Assembly (NCBI GenBank): GCA_951406725.2
Contig: OX597821.1
Coordinates: forward strand, 51,336,001-51,400,000
Direction: 5' to 3'
Source: Octopus vulgaris
Taxonomy: Eukaryota
DNA length: 64,000 bases
Part shown: piece by piece, positions 3,846-63,043 of the stretch
How the letters are laid out: each line of letters opens with the position of its first letter
Position numbering within the stretch: position 1 is the stretch's first letter
The notes under the pieces: model-generated
Seen by the model: the letters and a program-made list of their open reading frames with translations, nothing else
Databases searched by the model: none
What the model was told of the DNA's origin: nothing
Translations under genes and position numbers: made by a program

Positions 3846-5044
3846 ACAGTGTCCGTTGAATAAATGGTCGTCTAAATTATGCAAAAATGAAAATGACATT
3901 GACATCTCATTTTCACAGATATATTTACCAAAGGCGCATAAAAATATCTTGAAATACGGCCTTCAGAAGACTTCAGAATCTCTTGCATCTCTTCTGGACG
4001 ATCTACGTGTTTAAGTTGGTGAATGCTGCCATAAATCTTGCCTTCAGTTAGTCTTTGATGTTACAAGCAATTTGGTCTCTCGCTCCACTGCGTCCCTCAC
4101 ATAATAATCAAGGGAGTTGCAGTCTGGGGAGTTAGGTGGGCAGATGTTAAGGGTGATGTGGTCGCAGTAATTGTCTGACAGCCATGACTGAGTTCTCCTG
4201 CTTGTGTGGCATGGTGCAGAGTCCCGTTGCCAGACATAAGGTCTTCCAGTAGCCACCCTCTTCACCCGGTGTAGCAATGCCTCCTCCAGACACTTGATGT
4301 AGGCCTCCGTGTTGAGTCTGAGAGCGCGTGGGAAGATAAATGGAGGCATAACGTCACCATCACTAGTGATCACTCCAAACATCATGATGTTGATTGGATG
4401 TTTGATATTTATTACTCTCGGTAATTGCATTGGGGACACCGAAAGCCAATGGTTGTTCTGTGTTTCTCGTCTGAGGAAAACCACAAAATATTTGGTTGGA
4501 GGGGATGCTGGAGTTTGTTCAAAAGCTCCGAAGCGCGGTCTCTCCTGTTGTCCTTGATGGCTTGGGATAAAAATTGGCCCTTTCTCATCTTGAATATGGA
4601 ATATACCGAATGTCTCCATGCACTACCTGCCATATTAGAAACTCAGACACTCCCATGTTCCTGGCGATAGACGTGATTGATTTGGATGGACCTGATTGTC
4701 AATCATGCCCTGGATCTCACCAACAAATTCAGGAGTTCTTTTCTTATCAGAACGATGACGGTGAGGTTTCGTAATTACCATTAGATTCATCAAACTCTTT
4801 CCGGATCCTCTGTACTGTTCTCAGACTGACACCAAAAATCTCAGAAATGTTCGTATTGGAGCTTCCAGCGCAAATGCCCAGCAGTACAGCTTGTTTCCAA
4901 ATTTCTGGCAAAGTTGCATCATGGTGCTGTTTTTTTCGCAGACGGTGCCCAACTGACCTCACTATACGACAAAATCAAAAACAAAGACTATGCATGCGCG
5001 AAATAGAAATATCAAATTGCGACAAGTTACCCATATACACTTAT
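3846..5044 (-). mobile_element. Tc1/mariner transposon, DD37D (maT/Bmmar1-like), frameshifted
   Basis: HTH-like ISEIFGVSLRTVQRIRK (ORF 4747-4962), WFSSDEK (ORF 4412-4633), and WQRDSAPCHT..PPNSPDCNSLDYY (ORF 4044-4619) with 37 residues between the 2nd and 3rd D; termini only weakly inverted. Confidence 0.9.
3930..4925 (-). pseudogene. DD37D transposase pseudogene
   Basis: Catalytic and HTH motifs split across three ORFs by frameshifts. Confidence 0.85.
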
Positions 5045-6088
5045 ACAATATATATATATATATATATATACATAGTCGAAATATATGGAAAATTGGAAAT
5101 AATACGAGGAGCATTTAGAAGACACATATCATCAGTTCGTCACTTTTATAATTGCGTATTCTGAACAGCTTACTAATGCGATTCTATTACAAACGCTAAC
5201 TAGACCTATTGTTGCAGGCAATGGTTTTATATATATTTCCGTCATTGACTATCTCTGTCATTTCATTATCTTATTCCGTCTTGATCGCTATTGCTTTTCC
5301 TCTTTCTGTTTATAAAACAATTTTTCATTGTCTCCTATTTATATCATTGCAGATAAAAAATACATACATATATATATATGTGTGTGTGTGTGTGTATGTG
5401 TATGTATACATATATACATACCATAAGAATGATATGATATATAATATATTAAAAGTATGTCATTATGTTAGCATGTGTTTATGTGTGTGTGTATATGTGT
5501 GTGTATGTATATATTTGAGTGTATATGATATCAATGACTTTGCAGAGATTTTTATTTTCTGTCATTAGACGTGAGTAAATATATATATACTGTGTATATC
5601 GAACTTTTAAGCTGTTTTTGTTAAACCTAAGTATGGCACTTTTATACCCTACTTTTATGAGTGCATGTATTCACAGAACTGCACACACACATATCTGATT
5701 CTCTCTTAAATGGATTTAAAAAGCAATGGCTTATGGTTAACATAGCCTGTAGTACTCTTGATGATTTACAATAAAAAAATGCTTTCAATTAATTTAGTAA
5801 AAATCATTTCTATTGGTCAGCTATATAACTTACTTGATTATTGAATTAATTACGTGTACTCCCCACGAAACGGTTGTAGGAATTCATTAAGCTATAAACA
5901 ATCTGTAACGTCTATGCTTTTCTACATTTTAGACTCTCTCTTTTCTTTTTACCTTTCTCTTTCTTTCTCTCTCTATATATATGTATGTATGTATATATAT
6001 CTATCCATCATTCTATCTATCTCTCTCTCTCTCTCTCTCTCTTTCCCTTACTCTCTCTCTCTCTATGTATATATACATATATATATGT

Positions 6089-6137
<49 letters not shown>

Positions 6138-7094
6138 TGCTAATATATGTGTACATATGTGTAAATATATATGAACTCAAATGAACTCACAAAAATTAAG
6201 AAGATAATTTTTCACTGATAAGCACATAATTTCCCTCCACATATCAGACAGATACACTAAATCCTTAACAGGAACTCCTCAAAATTCTGTACTGTTGTTG
6301 ACATATCTTAAGCTCCTGACTATCTCAATGCAAATAAATACGTAGGAGTACCAATCCTCAACATTACAAATTCACCTGCCAAAGCATATACACAACAATT
6401 CTTTCAAAGGAAAATTCCCACTAATGTGATAGTGTACAGAACTTACGTAAGAAACTGGAGATAATATAAAAATGCCATATTCAGGTTTAACAGAAACAGT
6501 TTAAATGTTCGATAAACAATATATTTATTTATTCCCTTCTGATGACAAATTGACTTGTAAATCATTGATATAATATACAAGTTGTTGCAAAATCGTAGGA
6601 ATCAATGATCTTTGTGGAAAATGGAATATAGTTGTGAATGATAATTGATGTAATATGGGGTGCAATATATGGATATTACAAATTGCCGAGAAGTACATCA
6701 ATATTTTAGACAGAAAACAAATCTTTCTCAACGTACATTCAATGAAGACAATTAGGCCTTTTATCTTTTAAACATATCCCTTTTATGGATTTTATCATTT
6801 TGAGTGGGTGTAAATATTTCTCGTAAGATGATGTGAATGTTTCAGTTAGTTGCTATCCACTGTAAGCATTTATATTGTGTATCACCTTCAAAGTTTAGTC
6901 TTTGTGTATATATAGGGTTCCAAATTTGTTTTAAATGTTAGTATGTGTGCATTCTGAAGTTGTGTAATTGGTAACTTGATGAAAGCTGTCCTGCTTTAAG
7001 GCAGGCTTTTTGCAAACAGTTGATTTGGAAAGGAGCTAGAAATAAGTACAACTGTATAGTAGTAAAAGTAAACTTCCTTCCCGAGTTATATAGA

Positions 7095-14333: not shown

Positions 14334-14793
14334 TTAGGCCGTCAACTATGAAATTTGTAGAGAAGAAAAAAGTTTGCTAATGTTTTATAAATACAAGGAA
14401 TAGTTGTATTCATCAAAGTATGCACCCATATTGTCAATACACTTTTGCCATTTCAGCGGTATCTTGTCCAGCCCGGAACTGTAAAAGCCTGGCAATCTAT
14501 AGTCAATAAAATCTTGGAAGGCCTGTTTTACAGCATTGTCGGAATTAAGTTTTTTTCCTATCATAAAGTTAGCCAAATTCTGGAAGAAGTGGTAGTCAGT
14601 GGGAGCAAAATCAGGTGTGAATGGTGGATGATGGAGAACTTCCAATCCAAATCCTGTAGTTTCGTCTTGTCTTACAATAAAATAGGAGTGGAACTAAGTT
14701 TCTACATCATTTGGCCAAGTTGGCTGCTGTATATTTCGGCTGTGATTGATGAGCCAGGTTTAATGAAATCATAATGAAACACACCTGCGCCAG

Positions 14794-14795
<2 letters not shown>
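14334..14795 (-). mobile_element. mariner transposon 3' fragment with one TIR, internally deleted
   Basis: EVLHHPPFTPDFAPTDYHFF..KWQKCIDNMGAYFDE (YSPDLAP-type motif) and [19 protein letters not shown]; terminal ttaggccgtcaactatgaaat follows TA. Confidence 0.9.
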
Positions 14796-14830
<35 letters not shown>

Positions 14831-14980
14831 CATATAAATATATATGTATATATATATGTATATATATGTGTGTGTTTGTGTCTGTGTATGTATATCTATG
14901 TATTTATATATGTAAATATGTAAATATATCTGTTTATATATATGTGTATATATATGTATATATATAATATATAACATATA

Positions 14981-15017
<37 letters not shown>

Positions 15018-15029
15018 TTGCAGGCGGAA

Positions 15030-15465
15030 TGTAAAAAGAAACAAAGAAAATACACACTGGGTATACTTACAAATAAATGATTTGAGGGCAATTAAGAAGT
15101 ATAAACATCATTATAATGAGTCAATTTAGAAAGTCATACCGGTTTCACCATCGCTGTTCACTGACTTTGAATCAACAACATATCTTATAGTGCCTGAGTG
15201 AAAAGATTTCATGCATGGGAGGTGAGCAGTTCTGAATGTCATGCAGTTAAATTAATATGATTAATAGAGGATGAATGGTATATGGGATGTCTGAGAATTA
15301 GTAGGATTATTGGCATTAGTAAGGATAGTAGTGTCCTGTATAAAATTGTGTGTTCATGTTAAGCTGTGGCTGATCATTTATTTGTATATACATACCTTTG
15401 TTTTTTATTAAAAAAGCGTTTACTTTTATTCTTAGTGTGCATTTTCATTCTTTCCTTTTACTTTA
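15030..15465 (-). mobile_element. Small inverted-repeat element with an internal hammerhead, between (TA)n tracts
   Basis: Left gtaaaaagaaacaaagaaaatacacact-gggtatacttacaaataaatga is imperfectly complementary to right tcatttatttgtatatacatacc..agtgtgcattttcattctttccttttac. Confidence 0.6.
15130..15168 (-). ncRNA. Minimal type I hammerhead ribozyme, G3-C8 core variant
   Basis: aaaguca GUGAACA gc-gaug-gu GAAAC CG GUA ugacuuu: perfect 7-bp helix I, 2-bp helix II, palindromic ACCGGU helix III. Confidence 0.7.
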
Positions 15466-30590: not shown

Positions 30591-30634
<44 letters not shown>

Positions 30635-31109
30635 ATTTCACAGCTGCATAACAGCCAACACTGCTTCTGTGGTTGTTGATATGTGAAGTCTGTTTCATCA
30701 CTGTTCAGTCAATGGAACTTAAGCCAATAAACACGATCTCTCTGTGAAATCTCAGTTCATATGCTCTTAAAACTACATGCATCAATAAGACATCATCTCA
30801 GTCCATTACACGCTGGTGCGTAGTTAGATAATTATCATTTAAATTCATATTTGCGTAGTTAACTTCAACTACGTGAAAATTCACGCTTTTACATACATAT
30901 GTGCATAAACATAGACGTATGCTAACACACACACACATGAGTGCACAAACACAAAGATATATGCATATACATAGATAACTGCATATACACACGCATGTAT
31001 ACATATACCAACAAGGTCTTAACATCTGTCTATAATATACAGTGATGGCTGATATCAATTTTGAAAACAAGACATTATTAATGTGCCTGTATATGCATGT
31101 GTATGTATA

Positions 31110-31157
<48 letters not shown>

Positions 31158-31371
31158 TGTATGCACATCTACACACACATAATATTCATATATTTCTGTG
31201 TGCGTGAGTAATATTAATAAAAAATGATGGTGCAATTAATCTTCCCTTCTTAATATTTTTGGCATCAACAGAACGGATATTTACGAATGTCCACATGTAT
31301 ATTCTATGACGGGATAGGTCCTGCTGCATGATAGCATTCAGTAGCCAATGCCTGTAAAAGGACTTTCGAAA

Positions 31372-31498
31372 TATGTACATATATATATGTATATGAGTGT
31401 GTGTGTATGAGTATATGTATGTTTACACATATATATATGGATATATATGTATATATATATGCATATATATATGTATATATATATCTTATGTACGTATT

Positions 31499-31565
<67 letters not shown>

Positions 31566-31752
31566 ATATGTGTATATATGTATATATATATATATGTATA
31601 TGTTTATATATATATATATATATATATATATGCATGCATGTATATATACATCTATGTATATATTTATATGTATATATTTATATGTATATACGTACTTATC
31701 GATGTTTATATATGTGTGTGTGTATATACATATTTATATATGTAAATATATA
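31372..31752. repeat. Degenerate (TA)n/(TG)n microsatellite
   Basis: Direct reading. Confidence 0.93.
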
Positions 31753-31968
31753 GGTGCAGGAGTGGCTATGTGGTAAGTAGCATGCTTACCAACCACATGG
31801 TTCTGGGTTCAGTCCCACTGCATGGCACCTTGGGCAAGTGTCTTCTAATATAGCATCGGGCTGACCAAAGCCTTGTGAGTGGATTTGGTAGACCGAAAGT
31901 GAAAGAAGCTCGCCGTATATATGTATATGTATATATGTGTTTGTGTGTCTGTGTTTGTCTCCCCAACG

Positions 31969-31971
<3 letters not shown>
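31753..31971 (+). mobile_element. SINE family B, 5' half ending at (TA)n
   Basis: Close match to the first half of the copy at 25559. Confidence 0.9.
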
Positions 31972-32003
<32 letters not shown>

Positions 32004-32590
32004 ATAGATATATATATATATATACAAGAATAGGCTGTCAGCGTTTTGTTTGAAAGTGAAACCTGTTCAGTATTATAAACTATATCTATGAATTTCAGCT
32101 CGTAATATATGTAAGCACGTTACATGTGTGCGTGCGTATTTCTGTATTTAGCGTGCTTCTATGTTAGAGCATGTGTACGTACGTGACGGCTCCTGTAATT
32201 AAATGTCGCTGCATGTATGTTACGTATATGCATGTGAGTTTTGATACAGAATTCTGAATTCATTTACGACACACGTACCGAAATGCTAGCGAGCAATGGG
32301 CTGCGAAGACATTTCAATGGACGTGTAAACTGAGATTTCGCAGGCAATATTTATTGGTTTAAGTTCCGCTTGCTAAACAGTGATGGAACAATCTTCACAC
32401 TTCAATGACCACTGAATTAGTGTTGGTTGTGAAGCAACTGAAAAGAGAGAGATGAAGAGATTTAAACAGAGTAGATAGAGAAAACGGAAAGATGAGAGAA
32501 ATGTTAGCTGTAGACACACATAGGCGGATAAGAGTATAGTTGTTTTCATTTTATGCCAGTTTAAACAGACCTATTTTGAAAGAAGTTCCT

Positions 32591-32909: not shown

Positions 32910-34298
32910 GAAAGAAGTTCCTGCTTTGAATAAATTTCTGTCTTGTCTTTTTTGCTGTTATATTTTATCCCATAACACATGATCCAGTGCGTGTAAAGTT
33001 TTTCTAAGAGACGAATATTTATTTGATAGACATTTGGCTGCTATTTCTAGGATTTTGATTAACGTACTTGGCGGGATAATGACAAATTTATTGCAGATTA
33101 TGTATATGGTTCTGTGTACTCAATTTGCCCTTAAATTCGCGCTCAAACATACACTGTGTATCTATGAATAAAGCTATAAGCATATGAATGTTGTTTATGT
33201 ATGTATGCATGTCTATGTTTGTGTGTATGAATTTTAATAATTCACTTCGTAATCACGATTTATAAAGAGTTGTGTTCAGTCTTCAGAAGTGTCTTTTACC
33301 AATGGTTCGGATCTCGAGTCAGGCTTGTCAAATCCGCCCTTTGCAAACTTTGCAGAGACCAGACAGATTGATTGTCCCTGTAAGCCATTGTTGAAATGTT
33401 GATACTTTCTCATCGTTTGAACGTGTATTTGCAACACAGAGCAAGATACAAAGTACACAAAATGAAATTAGGCAGATAGAGATTAGCTGACAGCATTACT
33501 ATTATTTAAAGAATTCCGTAAAAATGAGAAAAATAACTATGAATGCTTTACTACTAGAAAACAAAAACTAAAATGAATACGAAGTTCTAGCACATGCAAC
33601 ATAATTCATTACATATACCATGACTACTTTTTGGATACTTTTAAATCTGTATCCAACACTTACGAACATTTACCCGATTTAATGCAAAGTGTTCAAACAG
33701 CACAAAATACTATTATCATTCATTCTGATGATGTGACTGAGAAGGTCTTAACAAACAATGAAGCAATGAAATTAGTAACGCTATTTTTCTAAAGTAAACA
33801 TATAGGAGTAACAAGCATATTAGGTTGAGTCAAAATCAAAATGTATTTACAAGAATAAAAAGCATATGTGTATCAAAATACATCCCATCATATTCTATTA
33901 CCTGTTACTATCTTTGTGCCAGAAGCTCAAATCCGCGATTATACCATTTGACTGGCTTAGAGACAACAAAACTCTCAGCACCTGTTCACAACTTCATTCA
34001 AATTGTTGAACCTCCGTCCGTGCAGGAATCGATCCATGGTTCGGAAAATGTCGTAATCTGATGTTTAAAACTACTCCTCAAGTTTCTCAAGTTATCACTT
34101 AGTCTTCTTGACATTGTATGGTTAGGCATTGTGATATTGTAGGAGTGTAGCATCCACATCGAAATTCCACCAAATCTACAATTTGACAGAAAAGAAGTAC
34201 TGATTACGCTTATTAGGGTTAGGAAAGTAGATGTATTTTTCTTATCCAGTTACAATCAGATGCCAAAAATATAAACCTCGAAGATTTACAAGCAGTAG

Positions 34299-37700: not shown

Positions 37701-39994
37701 GGAGAACCTAAATATATGGCAGGACAGAAAGGGGATTGGATACCCTAGCCACAACTTTGGGCGTGCTTAGCAGTGATATCTCTGTTAAACTCCCTCAATT
37801 AGAATAACAAGTACATATCATGAGATAACTTGTTTTCCAAATGGTGAGCGCCGATTGAATGATGTTATCTGCTCTAAGATGCCTACTCCTATATTGGCTG
37901 AGACCACCACCTTTTTGGAGATAGGTGGCATATAGTTGAAGACGACACTGTTTTTCCTCACTAGTCACTGAGTTACAGAACATCTAAGAATGTAATTAAT
38001 CAAATGTGTAAATGTGCGTCAGACATAATTACCATTAATCAGAACAAAGTTAAATTGTTGTCAACGTGTAATTATAAAAATAAATCGACTCTTCCCCTCC
38101 CCCTCCCTTCCATTCTTCCTCCTCCTTCTTCTTCCTCATCATCATCATCGTTGTCATTGTCATCACCATCATCATGCACGATTATTTGATTTCATTTGTG
38201 CTTCACAATTAGGTTCATCGTTCGACAGTGGAAACAGGCAGAAATCAGCGTCAGTGTGTATGTGATACCTCCATTATTTACAAACACTGTTCATATACAA
38301 CGCTAAATGCCATGATAATTGACACAAGCGGTAAATGAATTGAAAGGCACATGGCATCGATCACCATTCCTATTAACACGGACAGAAAGTTAGGCTATCT
38401 ATGAAGCAAGACATGTGTGTATGTTTTAGCGCAGAAGTGTCATTTGATAATTATATATGTACTTCCAAAAGTTAAGAAGCTTTCTCAGTATTGTTTGTGA
38501 TCAAATTTGCCTAAGATTTGCATTGGAAATTTTAATGAAAACTTCATCAGGAGCTCTCAGTAGATTTTTAACTTTCTGAAAGCTTTGAAAATATTGATAA
38601 TGAAAATGGAAATCTATGTTGTTATATAAATCACTCAGAGGAGAAACATATATATTAATAAATGGCTAGGAACAACCATCTGTCATTTGAAATATGTGAG
38701 AGCCGTAAGGGGGATAGAGGTGAATCGCTTTATATATTTAATGGAGACATGCTGTATTAGAAGTTCGTAGAGGTTCGATGTTTAACCACGCCTTTCCTTA
38801 TTCAATCATACGCCGTGGCACCTCAGCAATTTGTCATAACGTTGCCCCAGATTTACTAACAACTTGTGAATGTATATTAAAAACAGCGAGAAAAACCACC
38901 TGAAAATCACCGATACCCGGTTTTTACATTACAATTTGGTTTCTCAGTGCTTTTACTGGAGTAAATTCTGCTGCAATATAATCTTTTTTCTGCCTTTAGT
39001 CCCGTTTTTTCCCTCACAAAAATGTCATGGATGTATTTTATCCTTTCACTACAAGAAGGATTTTCTAAAGAAAAAATGGAATATTAATATATCAGATATC
39101 ATCTTTTAAGAGAATGCTTGCCAAAGAATGTTGAATAATAACTGCAATAAATGAATAAGTCACATGTTATTCCGCATAAATAAATTCATGTACAGTATAT
39201 GAAAAAGGTTTTAGCATTATATTTACACCTATCAATACATAGTGTGTATGTGCGAGGTGCTAACAACTGTGTATACATACAGTTGTTACAGGGTATTTAC
39301 ATCTGTCTATATATACTTGAATGTTAGTACAGTGGAATTAAATATTCAGTGTAACAAATATACAGTGTAATTATATATTCAGAGTTGGTCTATTCCATAA
39401 GGTTGATAAAGTCCACACCTGTATACAGTGTTGGTACAAAGTGTTGGCATCTGTTTTTTCAGAGTGATGAATGTAAACACATCCACGATTTAGTATAAAA
39501 ACGAAGAATGTGACTTCTTTTAACTTTCCAATACAGTAAAACGTATTATCTTCGCTGGGTTTTTTCCCCAGTAGGAAAATCTACTTACATCTGCGAATGT
39601 TATTGACCTTCAAGTTATCATCTGAATGTAACATTTGCAAGATTAGTTCATTCATAACGAAACAGTACATTATCTTTCTTTTCTTATATAATGTCTATCA
39701 AAATATACAGACTACATCGCATGGTATATAAATGATATAGTAAGAACTCTGTCCTTGAAATATCTCGAATGAATTACAGCAAACATTATTGTTGATATAT
39801 ATTCTTCAATTGCACTGAACATTGCAGATATAGTTTATATATGAAAGAAGTAATCAATACAACTTTTAGAAATATAGTTCGAATGCTAGAAATAAATTTT
39901 TCATCTCAAAAGTTAGCAAAACAAATTTGGATTTTTAAAAAAATTACAGTGAATGGTTATAGAGGTCAAGTAAAGTAAAACATGTTATTTTGAA

Positions 39995-45490: not shown

Positions 45491-45785
45491 ATAGAGGCAC
45501 TCGTATATTTGACAAAAGAATGGGTGTATTATTCAAATACACAGTATTATAGATCAATTACAATCGATCTTATCAATCGTTTTTACATCAGATATTAGAT
45601 AACTGGACGGTTAGTTAATACCCGTGCTCTTCAGAGCAATATACTGTCGAACGCTATTCTGTTGAACACCATTTTGTTGAAATCATTTTGAAGAATACAA
45701 TTCTATATTTAAGAGGTGAGGAATTATGTACATTATTTACATTATTTACATTTGATGGATATTTGTCCTCATCTTCTTTGTTGTT

Positions 45786-45831
45786 AACACGACGTTTCGG
45801 CTGATATACCTTCCAGCCTTCTTCAGATGTC
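45786..45831 (-). ncRNA. Type I hammerhead ribozyme
   Basis: gacau CUGAAGA a ggcug-gaagguauau-cagcc GAAAC GUC guguu. Confidence 0.8.
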
Positions 45832-45919
45832 TTGGGGAAATTTCGAACCTGGGTTCTCATTCTCTAAGGTATTTTTCGATGTTGTTAATATTATTATTCA
45901 GGTCACTTCCTGGAATCGA

Positions 45920-46000
<81 letters not shown>

Positions 46001-46177
46001 TACAACAACAACAACAACAATAATAATAATAATAATTACAACAACAACAACAATAATAATAATAATAATAATTACAACAACAACAACAACAACAACAATA
46101 ATAATAATAATAATAATTACAACAACAACATAAAAAAAACCTTACGAATGAGAACACAGGTTCGAAATTTCCCCCAA

Positions 46178-46223
46178 GACACCTGATGAAGGCTGGATTG
46201 TATATCAGCTGAAACGCTGTGTT
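46178..46223 (+). ncRNA. Type I hammerhead, triplet mutated to GCU
   Basis: gacac CUGAUGA a ggcug-gauuguauau-cagcu GAAAC GCU guguu. Confidence 0.65.
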
Positions 46224-47504
46224 GACAACAAAAAGATGAGGGCAAATATCCGTCACATGTAAATAACGTAAATAATGCATTTTGAAGAATATTTTCTTAA
46301 AAGATAGTACAGAAACATAAGGTTATGTAGTGTGACAAGAAAATGGCAACATCACTGTTAGAATTTCTCTGAACTTATATATATTTTTAATAATGTTAAG
46401 CCACGATCAAAGAACAACAATAACAGCATCAGTATATATATATCCGTCATAATTGCCATGAGTAAAGTAGAGTCTGATTCTTAATGTCATTAATGATTGG
46501 TTTTAATCGAGCAGTGATTTAGACATGGGATACAAACTGCTAATGGAAATTGTTCTACCAAACTACTTCTAGTCCCATTACTTAGCGCCAACTTCTTACC
46601 AGGAATTTCGTATCTCTCAAGTTGAAGACATCTCGAACTGTATCAAATTTCTTTTGGATTGAACACTAAACATCAGACTTCATGCGTTAAAGCAGCAGTG
46701 CATCGCTTTATTGACATATACTACAGTTATTTAGAGTTATTTGGAATGGACAAGTATCGTAGCTGTTACTACAATATAACTACATAATATCTAAAAATCG
46801 AGATGACCATGCCTCTGTTTTTGGCCATATCAATTTATCCACCTGTAACTACAACAGCAGAAATAAGAGAAAATACGAGGCGTTCATGGCGATATCTAAC
46901 ATCTCAACTCTTGCCTGTTTTCAAATACGATGAGATAATAAAGTAACATTAACGAAACGATATGCAAGTTTTGCTTTTTAAAAAATCATATTACAAAAAA
47001 TCGAAACCAAATTTATCAAATTGTTATGAGAGAGTTAATAATATCAAAAAAATAATAAAGTGAATTCAAAATTTACTTTATATTTTTCCACCAATTTTAT
47101 TTTTATTTATAAAATTGTATTTTCACAACCGTCCAATGTTGTCCCTCACAATGTTTCTCTAATTATCATTTTTGTTAATTTAAATTTCTTGTTTGAAATT
47201 CAAATTCTTCTTTTTTCATATTATATTAACCTGAGCATTTCTATACTGATTTATTCTGTTATTTTAATTTTACGAGATAAAATAGCCAAGGTCTGCTAAC
47301 TGATTGATAGTAGTGTTAAAATTAAATCGGAATTTTTTTAAATTAAAGTTACTCGTTATTTTGTTTTCTTTGCTGTAATCAAGAAATATTTTTTCAAAGT
47401 ATCTGGCGTGATATTCAGCTTCACTTTTAATACTAGGCGACACCAAATAATGATTGAACAATTTCGTTTATTGTATGTTTTCATTCCATTAGTTTTATTA
47501 CTGC

Positions 47505-51814: not shown

Positions 51815-51890
51815 AATACTAGAGTTGATAATGTGCATTTGCACGTTGTGCCAGATTCCTGCTTCATTAAGTACACTGGCTCCAATAATT
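51815..51890 (+). repeat. Left arm of a ~76-bp inverted repeat (partner 53806-53881)
   Basis: gataatgtgcatttgcacgttgtgccagattcctgcttcattaagtacactggctccaataatt matches the reverse complement of 53806-53881 with a handful of mismatches. Confidence 0.9.
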
Positions 51891-52258
51891 CAAATTGAGC
51901 GCGAATTTAGCATTTGTTTGCCCCAAATAGATTAAATATGTCATCTCGGTCAGCATTTCAAGACAGTCTATCAATAAACGGGAAACCTTTCATCTGATAT
52001 CCTGCTGCTGTAGAACTGTGCATGTATTCTTGGTCATCATTCAGTAAATTCTTTGTGAGGAATTCTTTGCCAACTCTCATGATGTTATTTTTATCATGTA
52101 TGCAGACTAATCTTTGGATAAACCTTGACGTTTGATGAAAAGTAGGTGGTGAAGTGTTATAATACATTTGAACTTTTTCTATGTTTAAAACATTTGAACT
52201 GTTTCTATGTTGACATGTGCTATATATATGTATATAATGTACATGTCTACAATATATA

Positions 52259-52856
52259 GGCGTGGGTGTGTGGCAAGCTGGCAGAAACGTTAGCGTGCCG
52301 GGCGAAATGCTTAGCGGTATTTCGTCTGCCGCTACGTTCTGAGTTCAAATTCCGCCGAGGTCGACTTTGCCTTTCATCCTTTCGGGATCGATTAAATAAG
52401 TACCAGTTACGCACTGGGGTCGATATAATCGACTTAATCCGTTTGTCTGCCCTTGTTTGTCCTCTTTGAGTTTAGCCCCTTGTGGGTAGTAAAGAAATAG
52501 GTATTTCGTCTGACGTTACGTTCTGAGTTCAAATTCCGCCGAGGTCGACTTTGCTTTCATCCTCGATAAATTAAGTATCAGTTCCGCACTGGAGTTGATG
52601 TAATCGACATTTTTCTGTCCTTGTTTGTCCTCTCTATGTTTAGCCCCTTGTGGGCAATAAAGAAATAAGCAGCTTACTTCTCAACCGCATGATTCCGGAT
52701 CCCATCCCACTCCGTGGCACCTCGAGCAAGTTAATTCTACTATAGCCACGAGCCGACCAGAGCTTACTGGGTGGATTTGGTAGACGGAAACTGCAAGAAG
52801 TGCGACACATATATATGTGTGTGCGTGTGTGTGTCTATATGTGTGTGTGTATTTAT

Positions 52857-52889
<33 letters not shown>

Positions 52890-53135
52890 CATATAAATAT
52901 GCATATATGTGTGTATGCGCGCGCGTGTGTGCGTGTGTGCCTATTTATCCACCACTACCGCTCTAAAACAGGTCGCGGGTGTTTACATCCCCGTACCGTA
53001 GCGGTCGGCAACTGTCCGATAGAATAAGTGAAAAGCTTAAAAATTTAAAATATTGAGGTCGATTCATTCGACTAAAATTTCTTTAAGCCGCTGCCCCATG
53101 TTGGCCGCAGACTAATGACTGAAACAAGTGAATGA
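52259..53135 (+). mobile_element. SINE family B interrupted in its head by a SINE family A copy that has an internal tandem duplication
   Basis: B head taggcgtgggtgtgtgg; A copy 52270-52668 with 52317-52499 repeated at 52500-52668; B resumes aagcagcttacttctcaaccgcatg..gactgaaacaagt. Confidence 0.85.
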
Positions 53136-53172
53136 TAAAACATAATAGATATAGGACATGGATTTGTGTGTG

Positions 53173-53257
<85 letters not shown>

Positions 53258-53805
53258 TGTGTGTGTATGTGTTTGCGTGTGTAAAACATCTTTCTGCAGA
53301 TAGTGAGTTTGCATAACATAAGTGCACGCAAATGCATAAACATGCTCGTGTGTATATGTATGTATATCTATCTGTGTGCATACATGTGCAAGTGTTTTAT
53401 TAACAATTCTTCATCTGTGTAAGCAGGAATGAGGAATTCTCATTGCATTTATTCTATCATATTTCTATTTATTGATTCTGAATTAATTATTTCCCTTTAT
53501 TTTACGTATTTTAAATCCGACGCACACATGAGAGCGCGTACACGCACAAATACACACAGACACACACAAGCACACACACATATATCTTGTCTTCATTATA
53601 AAACTATGATGACATTTTAAATGGTAATTAATGAAACAAAATATTTAATTAACTTCCAGAGAAAATTGGTGAAATTAACCAAGAAATATCATTTGATTAA
53701 GAACAGAGAAAGAAAAAAACTACAAGGGAAAAATCCAAAAATGAAATACCAATAATTTTTCAGAGACAGTTCAAAGGATTTTTTAAAATACATATTCTGC
53801 TTAAT

Positions 53806-53881
53806 AATTATTGGAGCCAGTGTAATTAATGAAGGAAGAATCTGGCACAACGTGCAAATGCCCATTATCGACTGCAGTATT
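53806..53881 (-). repeat. Right arm of the ~76-bp inverted repeat
   Basis: See 51815-51890. Confidence 0.9.
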
Positions 53882-59289: not shown

Positions 59290-59505
59290 AGAAAAACGAA
59301 GAAAAACTACAATATACAAGAAAAAAAACAACAACGCGAGTACGTGGTACATGCAAAATATTAAAAGATGCCCAGAGAAGGAAAGAGAGGTCGTTTAACG
59401 TTTCAAGCAAAGCTCTTCTTCAGAAACAAGAGACAGAGGAATGTCAAAGAGAAAAGGAAGACGGAGTAAAAAACTTGCCAACAATCCACGTGCTGTTACA
59501 TTATA
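59290..59505 (-). mobile_element. Solo PLE terminal-repeat-like fragment hosting the 59391 HHR
   Basis: Strongly purine-biased segment between short TA runs and containing the HHR; boundaries approximate. Confidence 0.5.
59391..59429 (-). ncRNA. Minimal type I hammerhead ribozyme
   Basis: uuguuu CUGAAGA a gagc-uuu-gcuu GAAAC GUU aaacga; all core positions canonical. Confidence 0.8.
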
Positions 59506-61570: not shown

Positions 61571-61626
<56 letters not shown>

Positions 61627-61629
61627 CAA

Positions 61630-61958
61630 ATATAAGAGGGATGGCCACTAAGTAATAATTCTACCAATTACATTTGGAGTAGAACTTTATACATGCTCAA
61701 TCTCATGCGGACGTCTCGTGTATAGTTCTGAAAATCATATTTTGCTATGACGATCACACTGATGAGTGATTACGTAAGTGGTAGCAACGAAACTGGTCTG
61801 TGATTAATCTGTATATTTTCTATATTTTCATTTGTCTTGCTCGCCGACGTTCTGACGTTTGCTAAATTTTCTTGAGAATATTCCTTTCTTAGTGGTAAGA
61901 CCATAGGGTGGCTACTTCTAGTCTATAGATATCCACTTAGTGGTCATCCCTCTTATAT
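61630..61958 (+). mobile_element. ~330-bp element with 24-bp inverted ends and a central hammerhead
   Basis: atataagagggatggccactaagt (61630-61653) versus acttagtggtcatccctcttatat (61935-61958), one mismatch; adjacent to (TA)n. Confidence 0.8.
61752..61805 (+). ncRNA. Type I hammerhead ribozyme
   Basis: gaucaca CUGAUGA gugauuac-guaagug-guagcaac GAAAC UG GUC ugugauu; predicted cleavage after C61798. Confidence 0.8.
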
Positions 61959-62197
61959 GTATGTAATACAATTTTTCTGAATCTTCAGACTTTTCTATAT
62001 GCTAGATCACTGGTTTTAAATTGATATTAATCAAATTAATATTCAATTTTTCACCATTATTATTTTAAATATATATATATATATATAAAGAGCAAATATT
62101 CAGAAATGAGTACTTAAATACCGTGTCATTATTGGTGGTTTAAATGAGGGTCATAACTGTTACCTCTAGCAATCAGACGCATGTGTATGCCCTTATG

Positions 62198-62246: not shown

Positions 62247-62604
62247 TATAAACGGCAAAATGTCTGCCTCTGTGTGTGTGTATCTTTTATATAAATCCAC
62301 AATTTTTCAGTTAGAGGGTTCGTACTTTCTATGGTCATTTAAAACCGTCCAAGGATGGTCGTGCACATCTTTACATTTCCCCAGTGACCCCGCAAAGCCA
62401 TTAGAAATCAATAGAAGTGACTTTCTTGTGAATTTTCTATCCAAAACCCAATCAAAATGCCCGAAACTTGATACGCCAATTGAATGCCAGCTAACTGTAT
62501 GTGATTGGTGGGAGATTTGGACAGTACTCGCGTGTATGTGCGCACGCAGCTGTATATGCATGCACTAGCACTATGACCCGGCAACGCCGGGTCATAGTGC
62601 TAGT
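62242..62604 (+). mobile_element. Non-autonomous Helitron-like element
   Basis: 5' tatatataaacggcaaaatgtctg followed by (TG)n; 3' GC-rich hairpin gacccggc-aac-gccgggtc ending in CTAG|T. Confidence 0.75.
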
Positions 62605-63043
62605 ACATATATATTCCTCTGTAAATTTTGGGTTTAAGATATGGATTCAGAGAATCATGTGCCTATCACAGAAAGCTTATGTAAACGACTTGGATAACAG
62701 AGCACATTATAACCCAGTGGTATTACACAAAATACCCATATTGCTGAAATCCAATATATCCGATCGATATAAATACATCATGGGGTGTGTTTATTAATCA
62801 AAAAATGTCAGGAAGTAAGAAATATGAATATATTTATTAAACAAGTTTAAATCCCTATGGGTACGCCGATTAGCAGACTCCTTCATTTAGTAACAATTCC
62901 ACTGTTTACATGTCTGTATAAGCATGCATGATATTATACAATACATTTGTAAATCCACAAATCATCGCAAATAAATGAAGCTAGTAGATCAGATTACTAG
63001 GGCATCAGGGTTACACTAACAATTGAACTCAACCTCCGGTTAG

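Follow-up and report, generated by a model that had tools for sequence, protein, structure and literature searches.

Insertions of Penelope-like elements (PLEs) are described in PMC8557442, PMC3846280 and PMC8969392 as 5'-truncated copies that often adjoin an inverted copy, so that inverted repeats come to lie around the unit. The same sources give them a one-sided tail of 30-40 bp and a hammerhead ribozyme in a pseudo-LTR (pLTR), and several clades favor (TA)n. For the PLE of Anolis, the purified protein is reported to cut and extend both strands of AT-rich DNA and to start reverse transcription at two internal RNA sites bounding the tail; the hammerhead of this element is protein-dependent, and in vitro insertion does not require the ribozyme (PMC11167929). 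Where helix III is minimal or absent, metazoan PLE hammerheads are described as cleaving poorly and as dimers (PMC4209133). In Octopus vulgaris, PLEs are reported as a sizeable and partly recent class (PMC13282606).

We analyzed a locus within a 64,000-nt stretch of O. vulgaris DNA, referred to as the window, which a preliminary description had classified as a MITE of 61630-61958 with 24-bp inverted ends and a hammerhead ribozyme. MITEs of the kind considered here are Tc1/mariner-derived and have TA as their target. Our results indicate, with high probability, that 61621-62069 is one dead insertion of a high-copy Penelope-like retrotransposon in (TA)n, consisting of a 5'-truncated direct copy and a short inverted 3' copy arranged head to head (Table 1). 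The inverted pair is likely to merely mimic terminal inverted repeats, and the locus is likely to be ordinary genomic debris and not a DNA-transposon MITE with a ribozyme.

Table 1. Features of the locus (positions are those of the window)
Feature	Position	Strand	Basis or remark
Left-hand (TA)24 microsatellite	61575..61622	.	Likely target side; sequence
Inverted copy of the family 3' segment ("left TIR")	61621..61653	-	Equals about 61935-61968 of the direct copy, 30/34 match
5-base filler between the two inverted pieces	61654..61658	.	Sequence
Second inverted piece, 19 bases, fold-back at the 5' junction	61659..61677	-	Compared by eye with loose-end consensus
Direct 5'-truncated repeat body	61679..61968	+	Likely 3' UTR and pseudo-LTR of a Penelope-like element; contigs
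TAG, putative stop of the parent ORF	61680..61682	+	Putative GIY-YIG-like end motif before TAG in other copies; by eye
Type I hammerhead motif, predicted cut 3' of C61798	61752..61805	+	Helix II likely shortened by deletion
"Right TIR", an internal part of the family and not its end	61935..61958	+	Bridged by 10/32 listed contig pieces
One-sided 3' extension (tail), about 100 bases, AT-rich, hairpin at about 62019-62047	61969..62069	+	Contigs, fold
Right-hand (TA)9 microsatellite	62070..62087	.	Likely target side; sequence

Extent of the unit and origin of its inverted arms

The 24-nt inverted ends are present as previously described: 61630-61653 agrees with the reverse complement of 61935-61958 in 23 of 24 bases, and the arms lengthen to 29 nt at 90% (61625/61963). 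Such a pair arose in none of 2000 mononucleotide shuffles of 61625-62066, and the arm sequence, with up to three mismatches allowed, occurs at two sites only in the 64-kb window. Two 3' hairpins are predicted (61905-61950 and 62019-62047); the fold of the whole unit (z -5.43) is driven by the two arms and is uninformative on the ribozyme. No second copy of the body or the tail was found in the window by in-window blast and arm search, weak matches at 2269-2298 and 39072-39088 being due to chance on inspection. Pattern scans for copies in viral contigs, metagenome contigs (twice) and prokaryote genome contigs returned nothing. The terminal module thought to be shared with a motif at 33036 comes down to an 11-base match, and the likeness is attributable to chance (best local score 17, equalled by 81.5% of 1000 random 200-nt stretches).

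We subsequently used four public DNA runs (X1, X2, X3, X5), which represent three samples of two organisms from two studies, and aligned their contigs to 61624-62062 with a likeness threshold of 80%. At least six DNA runs share words with the window, two of them with 0.13 of the sampled words; no RNA run was among those listed, which carries no information on expression. The aligned runs contain at most 0.13 of the sampled window words and probably derive from another species, so they describe the family in related genomes. Overall, 3705, 3162, 2298 and 292 contigs were placed in the four runs, most of them 90-99% alike. Therefore, the family is very abundant in related genomes, summed contig depth not being equal to copy number. 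The statements below draw on the 40 of 87 differences, 15 of 34 joints and 32 of 9624 pieces that were listed, and none of the contigs listed spans the locus. The end of the right arm at 61958 is bridged, with at least 31 letters on each side, by 10 of the 32 pieces listed (of 9624), which reach as far as 62042-62062, and cover remains high beyond it. On the left, cover collapses in front of 61679: from 16,269 (61684-98) to 108 (61654-68) in X1, and from 24,793 to 13 over the same step in X2. The left inverted copy has a cover of 41-69 in X1-X3 and 0 in X5, compared with values between the tens and the hundreds of thousands within the element in X1-X3. Since an arm-only contig would align to the better-fitting right arm, low left-arm cover alone is little proof; the argument is based on the loose ends and the inner junction. 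A total of 48 contigs (29 in X1, 15 in X3 and 4 in X5) carry other sequence before 61679, with one shared alternative, none of the 32 pieces listed (of 9624) reaches left of this position, and the left arm together with the inner junction has single-locus cover or none in all four runs. The copies collected in related genomes thus have the right arm within family sequence, but the left arm lies outside the family's usual 5' sequence. Both the limits of 61630-61958 and the MITE class were wrong: the element extends to about 62069, its right arm lies inside a repeat family of greater length, and its left arm is a locus-specific inverted copy.

These data bear directly on the possibility of a true MITE, in which a PLE-born fold-back unit (61630-61958) was taken up by a Tc1/mariner-type (DDE) transposase and spread by cut and paste in this lineage only, with the hammerhead as cargo. 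The 23/24 arms and the TA, even TATA, outside both of them would suit such a unit, as would the weak DDE remnants in the window (Pfam DDE_3, E 0.00087; Transposase_1, E 0.00021; both below cut-off), and spread restricted to this lineage would not show in sequenced runs that may come from another species. However, the letters to the right of the right arm are family sequence and not target; the TA/TATA there belongs to the family, and the left one is its inverted copy. Single-locus cover or none of the left arm and inner junction in four runs, and the lack of a second copy in 64 kb, also speak against this reading, which we consider very improbable.

A cut-and-paste element would show flat cover stopping at both arms. 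Instead, mean cover in X1, an indirect measure taken from contig depth, climbs from 5' to 3' (47k 5' of the hammerhead, then 194k, 295k and 613k in the tail), with a Spearman coefficient for this trend of 0.81 in X1 and 0.61 in X2. Cover along the body varies more than tenfold, and the copies are not uniformly full-length. The 15 of 34 joints listed comprise five strand changes at internal positions, nine skips and one go-back, with another go-back in a further table. The two go-back joints were each found in one X2 contig (61982 to 61801; 61964 to 61858). Among the five strand changes, three lie close together (61863-69 to 61915-32) and one occurs in both organisms, and these joints may not be independent. 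Taken together, rising cover and strand changes fit 5'-truncated retrotransposition with head-to-head inversions and partial tandems.

The left part of the locus can be derived from the family as well. The family sequence around 61679, beginning 13 bases before this point and ending 6 bases after it, recurs exactly in reverse complement at positions 61659-61677. From this fold-back match it follows that the left part consists of two inverted family pieces, one from the truncation point and one from the 3' segment, plus a 5-base filler. The inverted 3' segment stops at about family position 61968 and then blends into (TA)24; in X3, 14 contigs stop at the same 61968 and continue into TA repeats. 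The direct copy stops at about 62069 in (TA)9, and there may be a third 3' end near 62042-62049. Both flanks are (TA)n, and a target site duplication (TSD) is indistinguishable inside TA. As a separate observation, the AT-rich tail hairpin (62014-62043) is covered three to five times more deeply than the remainder of the family in X1 and X2, which corresponds either to very many tail-only stubs or to a module common to other families.

The 19-base fold-back copies the direct copy's own truncation point and therefore indicates that both pieces come from one event. This counts against two separate, side-by-side insertions of the family in one TA run, even though such a run might attract repeated insertions. 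The other version of this alternative, a rolling-circle repeat of the Helentron/HINE type that has subterminal inverted repeats and a stem-loop at its 3' end, could draw on the two predicted 3' hairpins and, like the two-insertion version, on the microsatellite context. But the left arm lies outside the usual 5' sequence of the family, the hammerhead core is kept, and the papers listed by a literature search for hammerheads combined with Helitrons were general ones. We regard either version as extremely improbable.

Under the preferred reading as a single PLE insertion, the following course of events is suggested by PLE biology. The GIY-YIG nuclease of the element would nick the AT-rich target on both strands, and the element RNA would be reverse-transcribed from two internal start sites, one near family position 61968 and one at about 62070. 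One cDNA would extend back to 61679 and the other only to 61935, and the two 5' ends would then be joined with a small fold-back and filler. The hammerhead would be part of the pseudo-LTR.

The hammerhead motif in this copy and in the family

The layout of the motif is as initially described: a 7-bp helix I (61752-58/61799-805, including one G-U pair), CUGAUGA at 61759-65, and GAAAC-UG-GUC. The core comprises, besides CUGAUGA, the pair G10.1-C11.1, GAAA at 61789-92 and GUC at 61796-98. Helix III has 2 bp and a UG loop; it is palindromic and could pair with a second copy. The hammerhead can be classified as canonical type I with a weak palindromic helix III. A type I descriptor, written after the motif had been seen, recovered this one site in the window, whereas 200 shuffled windows gave no match. 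The locus contains a single hammerhead motif and no tandem unit. Helix II, however, has only 2-3 pairs adjoining the core, the MFE structure of 61748-61810 retains helix I and not the ribozyme fold (z -0.69), and Rfam gave no hammerhead at gathering (0 matches) and none among the 14 matches at E<=10. "Well-formed" overstates this hammerhead. The accompanying notion that a hammerhead implies an RNA intermediate agrees with our reading as a retroelement.

Among the 40 of 87 rows listed for family copies, no differences occur in CUGAUGA or GAAAC. The cut-site C61798 is replaced by U in 91, 72, 94 and 59% of the depth in the four runs. Most family copies carry GUU at this position. This triplet is given as cleavable in PMC3138052, and U at the cut site is found in Hydra-clade PLE hammerheads in File S2 of PMC8557442.

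In each of the four runs, cover drops over helix II, and three of the listed pieces spanning this helix exceed the window sequence by 7, 8 and 15 letters. In X5, the insertions of one contig and three loose ends after 61767 pair, as judged by eye, with the otherwise unpaired 3' strand to give a 4-bp helix II. Based on the longer pieces and these pairing letters, which come from few contigs, a stretch of 7-15 bases has probably been lost from helix II in this copy. A ribozyme with a 2-bp palindromic helix III would cut only as a dimer or with the help of protein.

Several other elements were observed in the window. Positions 45684-46291 represent a textbook inverted PLE insertion of another family, with 14-bp direct repeats (TSD) at both ends, a 33-bp tail confined to the left side, inverted arms that are each about 165 bp long and 86% alike, a minimal hammerhead in each arm and (AAT)n/(AAC)n between them. 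On the minus strand at about 59300-59440, a short repeat ending near a TA run contains a minimal hammerhead-like motif, with a CUGAAGA core at 59423 and GUU after GAAAC; it is probably a third PLE family. A hairpin at 62554-62614 (29-nt arms, 3-nt loop, end CTAG-T), preceded by a repeat-like stretch from about 62250, presumably resembles the 3' end of a non-autonomous Helitron. Matches to Pfam DDE_3 and Transposase_1 below the curated cut-off at 4044-4622 (-) and 14702-15091 (-) are likely decayed Tc1/mariner remnants. Inverted pairs of 76-160 bp, 73-91% alike and 1-2 kb apart, are found at 51815-53881, 5520-6579 and 30599-32481.

Putative coding trace upstream of the body and the parent element

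The loose ends before 61679 give a 30-letter consensus which by eye reads L-L-K-Y-N-P-K-C-N-W in one frame, followed by the TAG at 61680-82, while the remaining two frames run into stops. The last four codons are also contained in the inverted piece of the window. According to Fig. S2 of PMC8557442, the nuclease cores of Perere, Poseidon and Nematis end in E-x3-hydrophobic-x4-P-x2-N; P-x-G-L-N is found in those of Neptune and Naiad, and that of Hydra lacks a Pro at this point. The upstream codons fit the hydrophobic-x4-P-x2-N spacing; this pattern, picked after the fact for 10 residues with the conserved Glu outside the visible letters, recurs in 64 of 42,646 window stretches (0.15%). The ten codons read like the C-terminal motif of a GIY-YIG nuclease from a PLE, closed by its stop codon. 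As a weak lead, the parent would probably be an autonomous PLE with a C-terminal nuclease of the Penelope/Poseidon or Nematis type.

Among the 29 ORFs scanned of the 51 window ORFs of at least 110 aa, Pfam gave no match to RT or GIY-YIG. Ten window-derived motifs were without match in the Naiad, Chlamys and Hydra consensi of PMC8557442, bar chance hits in the Chlamys files, and gave no named parent. The Naiad "HHR_half_core" families, which have a long helix II spacer and prefer (TA)n, were considered and rejected, as their consensi differ. By eye, the 3' ends of Naiad_Obim, Ovul and Omin also differ from the family, as does the Hydra-1_oBim hammerhead. Five peptide terms were absent from the supplement of PMC8557442, whose protein rows show the first 400 letters. 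By these motif and visual comparisons the family matches none of the published Naiad, Chlamys and Hydra consensi; it may already be catalogued.

The putative coding trace is also relevant to a further interpretation, according to which the family is a short non-coding PLE satellite (non-LTR retrozyme-like or SINE-like) that is mobilized in trans, has no ORF of its own and uses its hammerhead to free unit-length or circular RNA. A "canonical" metazoan hammerhead with a 7-bp helix I and a 2-bp palindromic helix III, as described in PMC4209133 and PMC7229834, would fit this interpretation, and animal retrozymes are stated to derive from pLTRs (10.64898/2026.07.22.740005). Consistent with it, the sequence 3' of the hammerhead showed no ORF start, a joint in X2 leads back to 61801, two bases past the predicted cut, and cover is three to four times higher 3' of the cut. 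But this cover step is confounded by indels at the hammerhead, and the upstream codons resemble a nuclease end. Furthermore, there is a single hammerhead with no tandem unit at the locus and no second copy in the window, and head-to-tail units of 170-400 bp are absent at the locus. Overall, we consider a non-coding satellite unlikely and retain the dead PLE insertion as our reading.

Significance and comparison with known systems

As read here, the locus is one more dead PLE stub and in itself matters little. It illustrates that PLE fold-back insertions can pass for MITEs in structure-based finders. If the tail of about 100 bp holds, the distance between the two internal start sites of reverse transcription would greatly exceed that in the Anolis element, and with its very high copy number the family would be good material for testing 5'-end pile-up at the hammerhead cut. 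A hammerhead-bearing MITE, if true, would have been a new hybrid of two transposon classes and a switch from class I to class II; among the titles and abstract starts covered by our literature search, none was found.

The locus shares with MITEs a span of about 330 bp bounded by 24-bp inverted repeats, with TA beyond them. In contrast to MITEs, its arms are not the family ends, 5' truncation is variable, and the left arm was made afresh at the locus. With non-LTR retrozymes, as described in PMC7229834 and 10.64898/2026.07.22.740005, it shares a canonical type I hammerhead, a length of a few hundred bases, low G+C and a link to pLTRs. It differs from them in the absence of tandem units at the locus and in upstream sequence that looks coding, and it is known here from DNA alone.

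The CUGAUGA/GAAA core of the hammerhead corresponds to that of D. virilis Penelope and the rotifer, shrimp and mosquito elements (PMC4209133) as well as the Hydra and Chlamys PLEs (File S2 of PMC8557442). Like those PLE hammerheads with a small palindromic helix III, it has a 2-bp helix III and a 2-nt loop, is compatible with dimers and carries C or U at the cut. Unlike them, it has a 7-bp helix I and no extra base between A9 and G10.1, and helix II of this copy is short and probably deleted.

Compared to described EN+ PLE units (Penelope/Poseidon, Nematis, Neptune, Hydra), helix II is longer and variable in the family, and the parent ORF is known here from 10 codons alone. Described pLTRs often include the ORF start, whereas none was seen here. 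The tail, one-sided and about 100 bp in length with two 3' limits (61968 and about 62070), contrasts with the 30-40 bp of described PLE tails. The overall architecture agrees with these EN+ units as given in PMC8557442 and PMC3846280: a 5' truncation, an adjoining inverted copy, a one-sided 3' extension, candidate partial tandems (the two go-back joints in X2), a type I hammerhead on the sense strand 170-270 bases from the 3' end, and a (TA)n target.
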